This document shows, piece by piece, positions 1 to 46,405 of a stretch of DNA of 46,573 nucleotides (its first letter is position 1; the number at the start of each line of letters is the position of its first letter). This DNA is from Oscillospiraceae bacterium (GTDB lineage Bacteria; Bacillota; Clostridia; Oscillospirales; UBA929): positions 1 to 46,573 of the forward strand of contig JAISVY010000166.1 of assembly GCA_031271325.1 (NCBI GenBank). Direction: 5' to 3'. The notes under the pieces were generated by a model, which ran no database searches, was not told the origin of the DNA, and saw nothing but the letters and a program-made list of their open reading frames with translations. Both the position numbers and the translations under genes were made by a program.

Positions 1-119
1 TACCTCTAAAAACCCCCGCTCCGGCTTGCGATGCCGCGCCATAGGCGCCTGTTCGCAAGCGCTGCGCTCGTTTTCTTTCGGCTTCGCCGAATGAAAACAT
101 GGGTTTTTAGAGCGACTCA
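1..119 (+). repeat. Family-1 interspersed palindromic element, copy A (touches the window edge)
   Basis: Closing arms CTCTAAAAACC (4-14) and GGGTTTTTAGAG (101-112) enclose two hairpins: GCTTGCGA...TCGCAAGC and GTTTTCTTTCGG-CTTCG-CCGAATGAAAAC. By eye it differs at one base from the reverse complement of 13381-13499. Related copies start at 11090, 42351 and 46296. Confidence 0.85.
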
Positions 120-6238: not shown

Positions 6239-6260
6239 CATCTTTCCCGCAAGGAGATTA

Positions 6261-6425
6261 CACGATAAACGCATGAATGTCCCTGTTGCACAGACGAAAT
6301 GTAGGGGCGGCCGTCCCCGACCGCCCGTAACCCCGGAAAATCCTGCAGCCGCGGGCGACCGAGGACGGCCGCCCCTACATGAGGATGCCGCTTTTTATGC
6401 GTTTTGTCCATTCATGCGCTTGTCG
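6261..6425 (+). mobile_element. Family-2 MITE-like palindromic element, copy 1
   Basis: The termini CACGATAAACGCATGAATG... and ...CATTCATGCGCTTGTCG are mutual inverted repeats. The central imperfect palindrome is TGTAGGGGCGGCCGTCCCCGACCGCCCG ... CGGGCGACCGAGGACGGCCGCCCCTACA. Flanking direct repeats are described in the findings. Confidence 0.8.
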
Positions 6426-7972: not shown

Positions 7973-8139
7973 CACGACAAACGCATGAACGGACGAAATG
8001 CACAAGAAGCGGCATTCACATGTAGGGGCGACCGTCCTCGGTCGCCCGCGGCTGCGGGATTTTCCGGGGTTACGGGCGGTCGGGGACGACCGCCCCTACA
8101 TTTCGTATGTGCAACACGGACATTCATGCGTTTGGCGTG
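7973..8139 (-). mobile_element. Family-2 MITE-like palindromic element, copy 2
   Basis: Its reverse complement aligns end to end with copy 1. Termini are CACGACAAACGCATGAACGG / CATTCATGCGTTTGGCGTG. It is flanked by TGTCTGTTGGG (7962-7972) and TGTCCGTTGGG (8140-8150). It lies between the convergent MATE and YihY genes. Confidence 0.85.
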
Positions 8140-8164
8140 TGTCCGTTGGGCACCCCGGTTTACT

Positions 8165-8923: not shown

Positions 8924-9819
8924 TTTGTAAACACCGCCGCCGTCCAACCGTCGCGGAACTCCCTGTCCAGCAGGGTAAACCCCGCCGCTTCGGCGGCGTC
9001 CCGCACCTCGTTGTAACGATGCTCTATCACGCCGGAGACGATCCACACGCCGCCCGGCGCGAGATACGCCGGCACCAGCGGCGTGAGCGGGAGGATTACG
9101 TCGGCTATGATGTTGGTAAACACAACATCGTAATCCGTGCCGATTCCGGGGATACCTTCATCGCTCAGCAAATCCCCGGCAAACGAGGTATAAGCGGATT
9201 CCAGCCCGTTCAGGAGGGCGTTTTCCCGCGCCGTCTCCGCCGCGAGCGGGTCGATGTCGACCCCCACAGCGCGGGCGGCTCCGAGCGAAAGGGCGCACAG
9301 TCCCAAAATGCCGCTGCCGCAGCCTATATCCAGTATGCGCTTCCCGGAGGCATCCATCCCATCCAGAATCTCCAGGCACAACCGGGTTGAGACGTGCAGC
9401 CCGGTGCCGAAGCTCATACCGGGATTGTTGAGGAAAACGGCGCGCCCTTCGGGATTCTCCGCCGGAAGCCACGCGGGCTGGATCAACAGCCTGCTCCCCA
9501 CCGGCGTGGGGCGGTAATGCTGCTTCCAGGCGTTCGCCCAGTCTTCCTCGTCGCGTTCCCGTACGGTCAGTTCCGGGCATAGGCTTTGCAGCTTGCCCAT
9601 CCCTTCCCGGTCGCCGGGCGGCAGATAGATTTTTACGGCGCAGGCGTTCCTGCCCGGCAAGTCTTCATCCCATATCTCCCACACGGGACGCGCCCTGTCA
9701 AATTCCCGGGGGTCGATGACCTCAAAACTCTCAAATCCTTCCCCTACCAGACGCGCCGTCAGCTTGTCCAGCGTATCCGGCGTTGCGGGGAGGGTCGCTT
9801 CCAGCCAGCGGCGCGTCAT
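8920..9819 (-). CDS. prmA: Ribosomal protein L11 methyltransferase
   Basis: SAM-binding motif ILDIGCGSGILGL and the PrmA-like segments FGTGLHVSTRLCLE and VFTNIIADVILPL are present. ATG 9819 forms an ATGA overlap with the upstream stop. Confidence 0.9.
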   Translation of the reverse strand: MTRRWLEATLPATPDTLDKLTARLVGEGFESFEVIDPREFDRARPVWEIWDEDLPGRNACAVKIYLPPGDREGMGKLQSLCPELTVRERDEEDWANAWKQHYRPTPVGSRLLIQPAWLPAENPEGRAVFLNNPGMSFGTGLHVSTRLCLEILDGMDASGKRILDIGCGSGILGLCALSLGAARAVGVDIDPLAAETARENALLNGLESAYTSFAGDLLSDEGIPGIGTDYDVVFTNIIADVILPLTPLVPAYLAPGGVWIVSGVIEHRYNEVRDAAEAAGFTLLDREFRDGWTAAVFTK

Positions 9820-11063
9820 CCGAGCAGGCTCCGGTAACACGCTTCGGTGTCCGTTTTTCCGACGGCCGACAGGCTCACCTGCTTGAAGTCGAACACCCGC
9901 TCGGCGATCTCCGTGACTTCGTCGCGCGTCACCGCGTCAATCCGCTTGATGACCTCGTCCGGTTCCAGCGCGTCGCCTAAAAACAGCGTGGAATCCCCGA
10001 TCGAACTGGAGCGGTGGACGGTCGATTCGAGCGCCATGAGGATGTTGGCCTTTTGCTGTTCGCGCGCGCGGCTCATTTCCGGCTCTGTGGGACCTTCCGC
10101 GACAAACGTCTCGACGACGTTTCGCGTCAGCTCCAGCGCCTGTTTCTCGGTGTCGCGCCCCAGCGCGAGATACACGCCCGCGACACCGGTATCGCGGTGT
10201 CCCGCGGTGTAGGAGTATACCGAATAACACAACCCGTTCTGTTCGCGCACCGTCTGATAAAGCCGCGAGGACATGCCGTGCCCCAAAACCGACATCGCTA
10301 TGCGGTATGCGTACATATGCTCCCGCCCGATCGGCAGCCCGGGGAACCCCAAACAAAGATGGTTCTGCTCAATCGGTTTTTCGCAGAGATGAAACGCCGG
10401 TTTGTAGAAGCAGGGAACCGCCGGCGAGGGTTCGGACGCGGGGATCTCCGAGAGCAGCGCCTCTATCTGCGCGAGGTCGGACGGCGCGTAGTGCCCGGCG
10501 AGTGAGACGATGATGCCGCCCGGGCAGTAATTGCGGTTTTTATACGCGAGCAGCCCGGCGGCGTCGATCCCTTCCAGGGACTCCTTCGTACCGAGCACCG
10601 ACATGCCGAGCGGCATCCCCGCATAGACCGAAGCGTACAGGTTTTGGTACACCAAATCCTCCGGCTGGTCTTCATACATCGCGATCTCCTCGATGATCAC
10701 GCCGCGTTCCAGCTCCCAATCCTCTTTGTGGAAACGGGGATGGAAGAACATGTCACTCAGAAGGTCAATCGCGGCCGGCAGATGGCTGTCGAGCGCGTGC
10801 GCGTAGAAACAGGTGCTCTCTTTGGTGGTGTATGCGTTGATCTGACCGCCGATGGCGTCCATTTCGGCGGCCAGCTCGGCGGCGGTGCGTGTCTCGGTAC
10901 CTTTGAACACCATATGCTCAATCGCGTGAGACGCGCCGGCCATCCCTTCCGGCTCGTAGCGGGAACCGTGCCCCACCCAAAACGCCACGGCGGCGCTGCG
11001 TACGTGCTCCATATACTCGTGGACGAGCCGCGCCCCGTTGGGCAGCGTTTTCGTCTGTATCAT
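9816..11063 (-). CDS. M16-family (insulinase/pitrilysin-like) zinc peptidase
   Basis: The inverted zinc motif HAIEHMVFKG (HxxEH) is near the N-terminus. 415 aa. AAGGGGG RBS lies upstream of ATG 11063. Confidence 0.9.
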   Translation of the reverse strand: MIQTKTLPNGARLVHEYMEHVRSAAVAFWVGHGSRYEPEGMAGASHAIEHMVFKGTETRTAAELAAEMDAIGGQINAYTTKESTCFYAHALDSHLPAAIDLLSDMFFHPRFHKEDWELERGVIIEEIAMYEDQPEDLVYQNLYASVYAGMPLGMSVLGTKESLEGIDAAGLLAYKNRNYCPGGIIVSLAGHYAPSDLAQIEALLSEIPASEPSPAVPCFYKPAFHLCEKPIEQNHLCLGFPGLPIGREHMYAYRIAMSVLGHGMSSRLYQTVREQNGLCYSVYSYTAGHRDTGVAGVYLALGRDTEKQALELTRNVVETFVAEGPTEPEMSRAREQQKANILMALESTVHRSSSIGDSTLFLGDALEPDEVIKRIDAVTRDEVTEIAERVFDFKQVSLSAVGKTDTEACYRSLLG

Positions 11064-11089
11064 ATTGTTTCCCCCTTATAGTCAATAGG

Positions 11090-11199
11090 GTCACTCTAAA
11101 AACCTCCCGCTCCGGCTTGCGATGCCGCGCCAGAGGCACCTGTTCGCAAGCGCTCCGCTCGTTCGCCTGGCGGCGAACACGAGGTTTTTAGAGCTTCTC
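11090..11199 (+). repeat. Family-1 interspersed palindromic element, copy B
   Basis: GTCACTCTAAAAACCTC ... GAGGTTTTTAGAGCTTCTC encloses the hairpins GCTTGCGA..TCGCAAGC and GTTCGCC-TGGC-GGCGAAC. It is flanked by TCAATAG on both sides (11082-11088 and 11198-11204). It ends 26 nt upstream of the M16 peptidase start codon. Confidence 0.85.
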
Positions 11200-11256
11200 A
11201 ATAGCATGACCTCGCCGCTCATACTCCATTCCTAAGGTTGCAGACAAAGCTGTTTT

Positions 11257-11319
11257 GCTCCGAGCGAAGCGGGTTCACGCTTCGGTTTCAAGCCGGAGCA
11301 AGAGGTTTTTTAGAGTGCC
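11257..11319 (-). repeat. Family-1 element, diverged partial copy (B2)
   Basis: The minus strand reads GGCACTCTAAAAAACCTCTTGCTCCGGCTTG..., matching the left arm of the family. An internal hairpin CGAAGCG/CGCTTCG is present, and no second closing arm is seen. Confidence 0.5.
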
Positions 11320-11418
11320 ACAAGGGAGGAAAGCTGGAGCAAAATCGCAATTTTGTGAAGTTTTTTGAACTTGTTGGGCAAAACGGCGCATGGCTGCACG
11401 ACTGTGTCTTCAATCTGA

Positions 11419-13345: not shown

Positions 13346-13381
13346 ATATATAACTGGGGCATCAAAACCCCAGTTATATAT
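13346..13381. terminator. Perfect 14-bp hairpin between convergent genes (possible bidirectional terminator)
   Basis: ATATATAACTGGGG (13346-13359), 8-nt loop, CCCCAGTTATATAT (13368-13381). It begins 13 nt after the stop at 13333. There is no clean T-run. Confidence 0.5.
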
Positions 13382-13499
13382 GAGTCGCTCTAAAAACCCA
13401 TGTTTTCATTCGGCGAAGCCGAACGAAAACGAGCGCAGCGCTTGCGAACAGGCGCCTATGGCGCGGCATCGCAAGCCGGAGCGGGGGTTTTTAGAGGTA
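13381..13499 (-). repeat. Family-1 interspersed palindromic element, copy C (near-exact inverted twin of copy A)
   Basis: It is the reverse complement of 1-119 apart from a single base in the second hairpin (GAACGAAAAC versus GAAAGAAAAC). Confidence 0.9.
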
Positions 13500-13529
13500 C
13501 CTGATTGTTAATTCTTTATAGGCGAACGC

Positions 13530-14458: not shown

Positions 14459-14614
14459 CACGACAAACGCATGAACGGACAAAATGCACAAAAAGCGGTA
14501 TCCTCATGTAGGGGCGACCGTCTTCGGTCGCCCGCGGCTGCGGGATTTTTCGGGGTTACGGGCGGTCGGGGACGACCGCCCCTGTGCGACACGGACATTC
14601 ATGCGTTTGCCGTG
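14459..14614 (-). mobile_element. Family-2 MITE-like palindromic element, copy 3
   Basis: Same orientation and termini as copy 2 (CACGACAAACGCATGAACGG / CATTCATGCGTTTGCCGTG), with an 11-nt internal deletion relative to copy 2. It is flanked by CCTGTAGG (14449-14456 and 14615-14622). Confidence 0.85.
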
Positions 14615-39522: not shown

Positions 39523-39760
39523 GGATTCATCCCGCCCGCGTGTTATCCGCCTTTGGATTCATCCCGCCCGTGTGTCATCCCCTTTTGGGTATCCGTCCGT
39601 GTGTCATCCCCTTTTGGGTATCCGCCCGCAGGTCATCCCCTTTTGGGTATCCGCCCGCGTGTTATCCGCCTTTGGATTCATCCCGCCCGCAGGTCATCCC
39701 GCCTGTGGGTATCCGCCCGCGGGTCGTCCCGCCTGTGGGGATACAACCTCGCAGGTGCAT
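39523..39760. repeat. Degenerate tandem array, 7-8 units of 29-33 bp
   Basis: Unit boundaries are 39523, 39555, 39587, 39616, 39645, 39674, 39707 and 39737. Consensus: GG(G)TATCC/GGATTCATCC-CGCCCG-YRKGT-YATCC(C)(G)CC-TTT(T). Each unit carries two ATCC-core half sites. Confidence 0.85.
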
Positions 39761-39772
39761 AGTTCGCGCGTT

Positions 39773-39802
39773 CGCGGGCGACCGGGGACGGTCGCCCCTA
39801 CA
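39773..39802 (+). repeat. Solo half of the family-2 element
   Basis: CGCGGGCGACCGGGGACGGTCGCCCCTACA matches the right half of the central palindrome of copy 1 with 2 mismatches. It forms a 9-bp GC hairpin on its own (GGGCGACCG-GGGA-CGGTCGCCC) between the convergent PBP2 and UDG genes. Confidence 0.7.
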
Positions 39803-42350: not shown

Positions 42351-42412
42351 CTGCTTACTCGCAAGCGCTCCGCTCGTTCGCCTGACGGCGAACATGAGGT
42401 TTTTAGAGCTTC
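42351..42412 (+). repeat. Family-1 element, right-half fragment (copy D) in the hisC-hisB spacer
   Basis: CTGCTTACTCGCAAGCGCTCCGCTCGTTCGCCTGACGGCGAACATGAGGTTTTTAGAGCTTCT aligns with the right halves of copies B and E. The hairpin GTTCGCC-TGAC-GGCGAAC is retained. The fragment abuts the hisC stop codon at 42413. Confidence 0.8.
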
Positions 42413-43447
42413 TTATACAAACTGCAACGCTTCCATCAGCGCGGTGATTTCGTTGCCTGTTCCGGCGGTGATACGCAGACCGCCGTTGATCAGGCGGACG
42501 GCGATGCCTTTCGCCCGCAGGGCGGCATGGCAGCCGGCGGCGTCGGGCAGATCGAGCAGGACAAAGTTCGCGGCGGTGTCGGTGACGGTGACACCGTCCC
42601 GGAACCGTGCCCATTCGCTGAGGCGGGCGTAGAGCTTGTCTTTTTGGGCGCGGATGCGGTTTGTGTTCTTTAGAAGCAACTCCGGATGGCGCAGCACCGC
42701 CGCGCCGATCGCCTGCGTGACCGAGCTGACGTTGTACGGCGACTTCACCGAGCGCAGAATGTCCGCCAGCTCCGCTCCGGCGAACACGAACCCCAGCCGG
42801 ATTCCCGCGAGCGCCAAATTTTTGGAACAGGTCTTTAAGACGATCAGGTTGTTATAACGTTCGATATAGGGAAGAACGGAGGACTCCTCCCAGAAATCCA
42901 TGTAGGCTTCGTCCAGCAGGACGGGGCATGTGAGCGTTTCCACCATTTGCACAACCTGCGGCAATGGCAGAACCTGCCCGGTCGGGTTGCACGGATTGGA
43001 GAGGATGACCGCGTCCGCGCCGCGCCCGGCCTGTATCAGTTCTTCTGCGCCGGGAACGCCCGGCGTGCGGGGTACGCCGACACATTCGATTTCGTACAGC
43101 GCGGCGTAAAACCGGTACATCGAAAAGTCCGGGTCGCAAACCAGCAGTTTGCCCCCGCGCGGCAGCAACGCGCTCAGCGCGACGGAGATCAGTTCGTCGG
43201 AACCGTTGCCCGCGACGGCGCTTCCCTCCGGCGCGTCCCAAAACGCCTCGGCCAGAGCGCATACCTCCGCCGCCGCCGGGTCGGGGTAACGGTGCAGCGG
43301 CGTATTGCGCACAACCTCCGCGATTTCGTTCATCAGCTTGTCCGGCAGAGGGTAGCAGCTCTCATTGCCGTCCAGCCGGACAGGGATGGTTTCCGTCATC
43401 GGGGGGTACGGCTTGAAGTCTTTCAGCTTTTCCGGCAGATTCATCAT
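42413..43447 (-). CDS. hisC: Histidinol-phosphate aminotransferase
   Basis: 344 aa with a class-II aminotransferase pattern (YPDP, NGSDELI, NPCNPTG, LKTCSKNLALAGIRLGF with the PLP lysine) in a his operon context. Confidence 0.9.
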   Translation of the reverse strand: MMNLPEKLKDFKPYPPMTETIPVRLDGNESCYPLPDKLMNEIAEVVRNTPLHRYPDPAAAEVCALAEAFWDAPEGSAVAGNGSDELISVALSALLPRGGKLLVCDPDFSMYRFYAALYEIECVGVPRTPGVPGAEELIQAGRGADAVILSNPCNPTGQVLPLPQVVQMVETLTCPVLLDEAYMDFWEESSVLPYIERYNNLIVLKTCSKNLALAGIRLGFVFAGAELADILRSVKSPYNVSSVTQAIGAAVLRHPELLLKNTNRIRAQKDKLYARLSEWARFRDGVTVTDTAANFVLLDLPDAAGCHAALRAKGIAVRLINGGLRITAGTGNEITALMEALQFV

Positions 43448-45364: not shown

Positions 45365-46263
45365 TCCATATGCACCGCGAAGCCGACGGCCGGGGCGGGG
45401 CGTCCGAGCAGTCCCAGCAGGGTGTCGTACCGCCCGCCGGTCAGCACGGCACCGGCCGCGCCGCCGACATAACCGCGGAAAAAAATGCCTGTGTAATACC
45501 CGATGGCGGGCGCGAGACCGAAATCCACCGTCGCAAGCCCCGGCGGGAGCGCGCCGAGCAGCGCCCGCAGTTCGCCGAGCGGCTTCGCGAGCGGCAGGCG
45601 CACCGTCCTCTCCGCTTCATCGACCGCTTCGGCTCCGCCCGACAGGCGCAGCAGCGCCAAAAGTTCGCGCGCCTCCGGCAGTTCGTCGCCCAGCGCGGAG
45701 AAATTTTTACGCTCAATCAGCGACAGGATATATTCCGCCCGTTCGCTGTCCAACCCTAAAGCGCCGAACATCGCTTGCAGGATCCCGGCATGGTTGACCT
45801 CTATATGCGGCTCCCTTTGGAAGGCGAGCGATACCGCGTCGCGCGCCAGCAGCAGAACCTCGGCGTCCTCCGCCGCGCCGATGACCTCCACCCCAGCCTG
45901 CGGCAGTTCCGCGCAACCGCCGCCGGAAGCGCGGAAAACCGGCTGCGTATACCAGAGCTTGATCGGCGCGGTTTCGTTTTGCAGACGCGCCGCGGCGAGA
46001 CGGGCAATCGGGGCGGTGTTGTCGGGGCGCAGGACGCAAATCCGCCCCGCGCGGTCGATAACCTTGACCATTGTTTCCTCGGAGAAGGGCGAACCGGTGC
46101 GGGTGAACAGCTCGTAGTGCTCCAGCACGGGTGTGGAAACCTCGCGGAACCCTTTGCTCTCGAATAAGCCGCCCAGCTCTTTCTCACGGCTCCGCCGCTG
46201 GGCGCATTCGCCGAACAGCCGGTCGCGCATCCCTTCCGGCACACGGATCATCGTCTCGCGCAC
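45361..46263 (-). CDS. hisZ: ATP phosphoribosyltransferase regulatory subunit (HisRS-like)
   Basis: The sequence P(E/D)GMRDRLF...FESKGFREVSTPVLEHYELF...YTQPVFR...GYYTGIFFRGY resembles the HisRS catalytic core without an anticodon domain. It lies directly upstream of short hisG. GTG 46263 follows GAAGGGGGG; ATG 46251 is an alternative. Confidence 0.85.
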   Translation of the reverse strand: MRETMIRVPEGMRDRLFGECAQRRSREKELGGLFESKGFREVSTPVLEHYELFTRTGSPFSEETMVKVIDRAGRICVLRPDNTAPIARLAAARLQNETAPIKLWYTQPVFRASGGGCAELPQAGVEVIGAAEDAEVLLLARDAVSLAFQREPHIEVNHAGILQAMFGALGLDSERAEYILSLIERKNFSALGDELPEARELLALLRLSGGAEAVDEAERTVRLPLAKPLGELRALLGALPPGLATVDFGLAPAIGYYTGIFFRGYVGGAAGAVLTGGRYDTLLGLLGRPAPAVGFAVHME

Positions 46264-46295
46264 ACCCCGCGCCCCCCTTCAACATTGACAGTAGT

Positions 46296-46405
46296 GTCAC
46301 TCTAAAAACTTCCCGCTCCGGCTTGCGACACCTCGCCAGAGGCGACTGCTCGCAAGCGCTGCGCTCGTTCGCCTGGCGGCGAACATGAGGTTTTTAGAGC
46401 TTCTC
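46296..46405 (+). repeat. Family-1 interspersed palindromic element, copy E (inside the his operon leader)
   Basis: GTCACTCTAAAAACTTC ... GAGGTTTTTAGAGCTTCTC with the same two-hairpin interior as copy B. It ends 32 nt upstream of the hisZ start. Confidence 0.85.

Follow-up and report, generated by a model that had tools for sequence, protein, structure and literature searches.

The window analysed here, a stretch of DNA of 46,573 nucleotides, carries several copies of a foldable repeat of about 110 nt, and the question raised by this locus is whether the repeat is mobile DNA or a functional RNA. An earlier sequence-only reading kept both options, a 'REP/MITE-like mobile hairpin module' and a transcribed structured RNA that tends to sit in 5′ leaders. 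The window corresponds to contig C162 of a 1.9-Mb genome (G000), which was assembled from a termite-gut metagenome in 191 contigs and has a G+C content of 58.6%. The locus was present in one public DNA run, a termite-gut metagenome, and in no RNA run.

Copies, fold and subfamilies of the element

The four full copies (A, B, C and E) and the two fragments (D and F) described in the sequence-only reading were all present in the window, with slightly redrawn boundaries:

1-119, plus strand: copy A, subfamily 3, cut by the start of the window; ends GGTAC-CTCTAAAAACCC .. GGGTTTTTAGAG-CGACT, hairpin 2 with a longer stem of 13 bp
11082-11088: left flanking repeat of copy B, TCAATAG, of which the inner CAATA is the duplicated target
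11089-11199, plus strand: copy B, subfamily 1, full length, covariance model score 136.5 bits; left end GGTCA followed by the 13-bp inverted repeat CTCTAAAAACCTC, hairpin 1 GCTTGCGA..TCGCAAGC with apical stem, hairpin 2 GTTCGCC-TGGC-GGCGAAC, right end GAGGTTTTTAGAG followed by CTTCT(C)
11198-11204: right flanking repeat of copy B, TCAATAG, overlapping the last two bases of the element
11271-11320, minus strand: fragment F, left end of a long-form copy (TGGCACTCTAAAAAACCTC..GGCTTGAAACCGAAGCGTGAACCC)
13383-13502, minus strand: copy C, subfamily 3, 97% complementary to copy A
42358-42414, plus strand: copy D, right half of a subfamily-1 element, in the hisC-hisB spacer
46295-46405, plus strand: copy E, subfamily 1, without flank duplication

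A repeat search recovered the same relations, with 1-126 and 13374-13499 as complementary arms (97%) and 11078-11199 and 46284-46405 as direct copies (89% identical), whose right half recurs at 42358-42413. The full copies fold as had been proposed, with an outer stem of 12-13 bp enclosing hairpin 1 (base GCTTGCGA/TCGCAAGC, apical stem of 5 bp) and hairpin 2. Their minimum free energies range from -49 to -61 kcal/mol (z of -4.5 to -7.3 against shuffled controls), and the opposite strand folds about equally well. The differences in stems and loops listed earlier for copies A to E were correct, and so were TCAATAG on both sides of copy B, the lack of a flank repeat at copy E, and the spacing of copies B, D and E from minus-strand start codons, which is about 25-33 nt. 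Copy C lies between convergent genes, and its hairpin 2 with the following T-run has a terminator-like score. A separate perfect hairpin at 13351-13378 (ATAACTGGGGCATCAAAACCCCAGTTAT), directly adjoining copy C between the convergent genes, probably terminates the upstream gene.

Two further observations concern the window itself. Positions 3349-3657 of contig C156 repeat window positions 10900-11204 (the start of the gene at 9816-11063 plus copy B) near-exactly and diverge from the window sequence beyond copy B, which reflects either strain variation or a fork in the assembly at this repeat. Between genes at 39532-39730 there is a tandem array of about six 29-nt units (CCGCCCGTGTGTCATCCCCTTTTGGGTAT-like).

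Copies throughout the genome belong to three subfamilies built on one core, each with a perfect 13-bp terminal inverted repeat (CTCTAAAAACCTC, TGTTGAAAATTGC and CTCTAAAAACCC, respectively):

Subfamily 1 (copies B, D and E): G(G/T)GTCA-CTCTAAAAACCTC ... GAGGTTTTTAGAG-CTTCT, in another notation G(G/T)GTCA-CTCTAAAAACC .. GGTTTTTAGAG-CTTCT
Subfamily 2: GGGCA-TGTTGAAAATTGC ... GCAATTTTCAACA-CTTCG
Subfamily 3 (copies A and C): AGGTAC-CTCTAAAAACCC ... GGGTTTTTAGAG-CGACT, with a longer hairpin 2

Identity of the hairpin-1 module between subfamilies is 89-92%, which is the level seen within them, whereas identity of the terminal repeats falls to about 50%, both arms having changed together. The outermost 5-6 nt of both ends are kept across subfamilies, yet they are not inverted repeats of each other, which is unusual for DDE-type ends and counts against reading the element as a MITE.

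Besides the modal form of about 110 nt, the genome contains nested shorter and longer forms. A short form of about 55 nt consists of the end repeat and hairpin 2 only and makes a near-perfect palindrome of about 22 bp, and an intermediate form has CCGCTC and lacks hairpin 1. Long forms of 150-480 nt have extra modules nested within the upper part of hairpin 1, some of them GTAG-tagged GC-rich palindromes. Long forms of about 220 nt, found at C36:8930-9170, C12:8330-8560, C182:23650-23900 and elsewhere in G000, share a conserved insert of about 110 nt in hairpin 1 (..GCCTCGCAGGGAGACTTGGAACCCGCAGGCATAGCGAGCC..GGGTGAAAGGCGACCGCCCGCGAGGC..), which also occurs outside the element and has no Rfam match. 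Hairpin 1 as an independent mobile unit was rejected, with only one solo copy found.

Mobility and distribution of the family

The element is abundant in its genome, far beyond chance. The octamer TCTAAAAA occurs 153 times, with about 9 occurrences expected. An iterated nhmmer profile gave 271 matches genome-wide, 105 of them full length, and a covariance model built from 69 copies detected at least 120 copies. Taken together the family makes up roughly 1% of this small gut-symbiont genome, and the assembly is broken by the family, many of whose copies are located where contigs end. Gene positions were taken from ORF-based gene calls (1691 genes, 86% coding), and only two to three of the 271 matches, depending on the overlap cutoff, fall inside predicted genes.

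Insertion of the element duplicates 5 bp of its target. The two 5-bp flanks match each other within a copy more than between copies in subfamily 1 (n=39) and subfamily 2 (n=26), with 0 of 5000 permutations reaching the observed value in either (p<0.0002), and in subfamily 3 (p=0.009 in the permutation test). The excess is limited to five positions and is absent from the neighbouring positions on either side. Duplicated pentamers are AT-rich, with the consensus CAATT in subfamily 1, more varied targets in subfamily 2 (CTTAG, TATAT, ATCTA, GATAT) and CATAT-like targets in subfamily 3. Tandem copies always have ten bases between GAGCTTC and CAC, which places the element ends 5 nt apart. About a fifth of the subfamily-1 copies (7 of 35), copy E included, have no flank duplication, and these count against the MITE reading.

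Two natural empty sites were found, in both of which the insert is bracketed by a 5-bp duplication; the comparison is with diverged paralogous repeats and other species and not with isogenic strains, which was likewise counted against the MITE reading. At the first, the copy on contig C53, with TTATT on both sides, interrupts a family X repeat that is intact at C74, C41, C106 and C122. At the second, the copy on C101 is flanked by (G/C)AGTT twice, and the paralogous stretch on C36 has GCGTT once. Family X is a third repeat of about 110 nt (..GATTTTGCTCCAGTTTTCCTCACTTGACAACTCGCTTCGCTCGGAGCAAAACGG..) with 12 copies, among them those at C74:7680-7759, C41:3092-3171, C106:78-157 and C122:3996-4075 and one in the window at about 11236-11388 on the minus strand, inside which fragment F sits. 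Three of the 12 copies, including that of fragment F, are cut by the element at one shared TCACTTG site, which resembles the subfamily-1 target. The Rfam Transposase-2 match on family X is weak and non-significant (E=6.3).

Copy D records a further insertion. The hisC-hisB spacer that holds it is 90 nt long here, and in four relatives of the same genus hisC and hisB overlap or lie at most 8 nt apart. The last two bases of copy D supply part of the hisC stop codon (TTA on the plus strand, 42413-42415), thus the insertion re-defined the end of the hisC gene.

The distribution of the family among genomes is patchy. Only four of 30 genomes of the family-level taxon are carriers, with at least 120 copies in G000, 71 in G007, 72 in G020, which belongs to another genus, and four in G002, and most genomes of the same genus have the same genes but not the element. 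In an exact-pattern scan for the core, using one genome per species from 185,579 species, only two other records matched, 'Clostridiales bacterium UBA929' and 'Oscillospiraceae bacterium isolate Mx356_bin29', which are G007 and G020. The core was also found on eleven metagenome contigs, and no match was found in viral contigs.

All three end types recur in other carrier genomes. Subfamily-2 copies of G000 and G020 have a median identity of 0.945 (best 0.991), compared with 0.927 within G000. The two subfamily-2 consensus sequences differ only in the apical stem of hairpin 1 and in one loop base, and both apical-stem variants are present in both genomes. Coding DNA of orthologues reaches only 67-75% identity even between members of the genus, therefore the cross-genus likeness of the element indicates either recent horizontal spread or very strong constraint. 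These near-identical copies in two genera suggest that the spread was horizontal and recent.

On the grounds of the 5-bp duplication, the empty sites, the copy number, the patchy distribution and a hisC-hisB insertion absent in relatives, we conclude that the element is probably non-autonomous mobile DNA, a structured MITE in three subfamilies. It has the features by which MITEs are defined structurally, namely terminal inverted repeats, a target duplication, small size, no coding content and many dispersed copies.

Alternative explanations for the fold, the mobiliser and the gene context

The structure-keeping differences between copies pointed out earlier are real. Among 69 copies from G000, 94.4% of the alignment cells were paired compared with 86.5% in column shuffles, 15 of the 36 pairs had changed on both sides, and sliding one partner by 1-3 columns lowered the pairing to 33-49%. 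For 46 distinct copies from other genomes, aligned by fitting to the covariance model, the values were 96.7% and 19 pairs. In these figures (94-97% of cells paired, 15-19 double-changed pairs) cells count sequences and not events, and much of the count represents a few switches at the level of subfamilies.

This last property lends some weight to a possible though less likely explanation of the compensation, in which intrastrand template switching or arm-to-arm correction, combined with a few founding master copies, replaces selection on the fold. Double changes are concentrated in subfamily-level switches, such as pair 46/52 (GC in 29 copies, CG in 28) and the outer stem of subfamily 1 compared with that of subfamily 2. 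Wobble intermediates are balanced as well, with 54 G-U and 51 A-C, which would fit a process at the DNA level. However, hairpin 2 of subfamily 3 has many differing stem sequences, all of them pairing, across two genomes, and at least four pairing combinations occur in the inner portion of the outer stem (CCTC/GAGG, CTCC/GGAG, CCCC/GGGG-type and ATCCCC/GGGAT), both of which speak against this explanation.

With G-U and A-C intermediates in equal measure, nothing singles out either strand as an RNA. A host RNA function accounts for the pattern no better than would a need at the DNA level, selection among element copies for the ability to transpose, or arm-to-arm correction in palindromes. Of the earlier claim that the fold is under selection at the DNA or the RNA level, the compensation itself stands, but it shows neither the level nor whether host or element benefits.

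The MITE reading calls for a transposase acting from elsewhere. No autonomous parent emerged when every left end was combined with every right end at distances of up to 4.5 kb in the 191 contigs of G000; the ORFs between distant ends were ordinary genes (MBL hydrolase, HicB, RlmN, AspRS, TyrRS and a phage-type integrase). Nor did an autonomous element with matching ends turn up in the examined loci of other carriers or in viral contigs, the assemblies, that of G000 included, being fragmented. This failure counts against the MITE reading. A multi-copy protein family could not be detected in the G000 assembly either. Several enzyme classes were rejected as mobilisers: DDE_Tnp_1 does not track the carriers and is missing from G000, rve does not track them and occurs in G000 only, Mutator-type transposases are missing from G000 and G020, and reverse transcriptases from G000 and G007. 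A DDE gene that shares a G020 contig with the element was rejected as well, its ends not matching.

RAYT-like Y1 transposases were the sole transposase class found in all three high-copy genomes, with four matches in G000, six in G007 and seven in G020. The two RAYT-like genes of G000 (C130:18671-19180, next to ychF, and C41:1693-2229) lie among housekeeping genes, and there are fragments at C46:13125-13304 and C130:13915-14031. The latter fragment abuts a subfamily-3 element, and in G007 the full-length gene corresponding to the fragment follows the same HD-domain gene. The protein encoded at C130:18671-19180 scores 63 bits to the NCBIfam 'REP-associated tyrosine transposase', below the 80-bit cut-off, and 27 bits to Pfam Y1_Tnp.

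These genes raise the possibility of a REPIN-like element that RAYT-like Y1 (HUH) transposases mobilise in the form of folded single-stranded DNA, with the fold as their recognition structure. Within the genus, RAYT-like genes are present in both high-copy carriers and in none of the six genomes without high-copy elements, and the NCBIfam match points in the same direction. The near-perfect palindromes of the 55-nt forms, the asymmetric element ends, and a fold kept on both strands with balanced intermediates, as DNA would give, are further points in its favour. Nevertheless, we regard this explanation as unlikely. The family makes a 5-bp target duplication, which is not known for Y1 transposases of the IS200/IS605 or RAYT type. 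Element ends (G(G/T)GTCA.. and ..CTTCT) lack the GTAG or CGTC tag. No strong covariance model match lies within about 1.5 kb of the RAYT-like genes of G000, G007 and G020, a degenerate 34-bit match about 750 nt downstream of one of them in G000 being the nearest sign of the element, and no palindromes were visible at their flanks.

The occurrence of the enzyme and of the element also diverges outside the high-copy carriers. Eight element-free genomes of other genera have strong RAYT-like matches, and a few more have weak or partial ones, whereas G002 carries four element copies without any RAYT. Moreover, G000 contains a more natural partner for RAYT genes. A second repeat family of about 165 nt, at 6260-6425 (plus), 7973-8140 (minus) and 14459-14614 (minus) of the window, with a solo half at 39764-39802, is centred on an 80-nt palindrome with GTAG-tagged GC-rich arms (ATGTAGGGGCGGCCGTCCCCGACCGCCCG ...), the classical REP signature.

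A variant that would accommodate the duplication, in which a RAYT-like Y1 enzyme moves a three-way-junction substrate, as a folded strand or cruciform, and leaves 5 bp duplicated, is in our view quite doubtful. If it were true, the coordinated changes in the end stems would trace switches from one paralogous enzyme to another.

The remaining alternative is that the element is primarily a functional structured RNA, acting as a cis-acting leader, a 3′-end module or a small RNA, and spread by duplication. Its position was compared with random placement inside each copy's own spacer. Twenty-two copies lie at most 8 nt from a stop codon, where 9.3 were expected (p<0.0005), and 18 lie 20-40 nt upstream of a start codon, where 11 were expected (p about 0.02), the stop-codon abutment being the stronger of the two. 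Thus the tendency towards 5′ leaders proposed from the window persists genome-wide as a modest enrichment, but stop codons are preferred, and both orientations occur.

Between co-directional genes of G000, subfamily 1 is antisense in 46 cases and sense in 11 (p=3e-6), and subfamilies 2 (17:12) and 3 (5:5) show no orientation bias. A similar bias of subfamily 1 appears when its copies are oriented by GC skew (66:26); because skew and gene strand are correlated (r=0.80), transcription-linked selection and replication-linked insertion are inseparable. In sense orientation subfamily-1 copies end in a strong stem followed by CUUCUYAAUU, and hairpin 2 of subfamily 3 with its T-run is terminator-like, which makes it plausible that the sense orientation is counter-selected inside operons. 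Copy E, antisense to the first his gene, lies between a promoter-like site (11 of 12 positions; 46442-46414, minus strand) and the start of that gene at 46263, and would probably be transcribed as antisense leader sequence.

The comparison with Rfam that had been suggested gave no match at gathering score in the window, and permissive Rfam scans of copy B and of 12 long-form loci gave only chance-level matches. The strongly folded, covarying structure, the antisense orientation of subfamily 1, the modest leader enrichment and the position of copy E would all suit an RNA, yet the target duplications and empty sites, the occurrence beside unrelated genes, in every intergenic class and in either orientation, the lack of orientation bias in two of the subfamilies, wobble intermediates that favour neither strand as RNA, the lack of an Rfam family and the many congeners that keep the same genes without the element make this explanation very unlikely. 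The earlier option of a transcribed structured RNA in 5′ leaders is therefore weak, given the modest enrichment, the missing Rfam match and the balanced intermediates.

Comparison with known repeat families and significance

Of the 'REP/MITE-like mobile hairpin module', the MITE part is retained on the basis of duplication, empty sites, copy number and patchiness, and the REP part is not, the REP features examined being absent. By definition, REPs and REPINs carry a conserved GTAG or CGTC tetranucleotide tag at one end of the palindrome (PMC3733652). The element shares with REP/REPIN-RAYT systems the abundant extragenic palindromes, the palindromic short forms and the RAYT-like genes in every high-copy carrier. 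However, it has no such tag, does not adjoin RAYT genes and makes a target duplication, and thus fails the defining tests of REP/RAYT systems.

The closest system in design is bcr1, one of the Group A interspersed repeats of the Bacillus cereus group. It is short, non-coding and dispersed, is flanked by 5-bp direct repeats and folds into a cruciform-like structure of two independent stem-loops that compensatory changes preserve; its occurrence is not conserved between related strains, and no transposase is known for it (PMC3184786). Both share the 5-bp flanking repeats, the cruciform-like fold with two stem-loops, the compensatory changes and the patchy distribution. Yet bcr1 is about 155 bp long and transcribed, compared with about 110 bp in the element studied here, which, unlike bcr1, has three end types on one core and nested short and long forms. 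The likeness is one of described features. The carriers here are Oscillospiraceae MAGs, and the element would be an analogue from another taxon, apparently without shared sequence, and not a member of that family.

Correia/NEMIS elements of Neisseria and classical MITEs have in common with it the inverted repeats, the target duplication, hundreds of intergenic copies, a stable hairpin if transcribed and positions at gene boundaries. Correia elements have inverted repeats of about 26 bp and duplicate TA, whereas our element has a 13-bp repeat, a 5-bp duplication, outermost 5-6 nt that are unlike at the two ends, and an interior that forms a three-way junction instead of one long hairpin. BOX elements of Streptococcus pneumoniae and BIMEs of enterobacteria are similar in their modular build, with one internal module and varied ends or nesting. 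Their modules are not known to be related in sequence to those described here, nor are these elements known to be bounded by target duplications in such a way.

Under the MITE reading, a transposase supplied in trans would make 5-bp staggered cuts at AT-rich pentamers. Such pentamers would lie mostly at gene boundaries in a genome with 59% G+C, which would explain the accumulation at stop codons and immediately upstream of ribosome-binding sites. The Y-shaped fold may be kept in that only copies with matched arms multiply, or in that hairpin arms correct each other, and host use of an RNA would not be needed to keep it. The 4:1 antisense bias of subfamily 1 could reflect selection against the sense orientation in transcripts or an insertion bias linked to the direction of replication. 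Copies may have spread horizontally together with whatever mobilises them.

This recently active family is new and represents an ordinary kind of selfish DNA; it is probably not a new regulatory RNA. Its presence inside operons, such as hisC-hisB, and in leaders affects annotation, binning and possibly gene expression in uncultured termite-gut bacteria. The three co-varying end types, together with the likeness across genera, make a compact case in which to study how miniature elements switch partners and pass between co-resident species.
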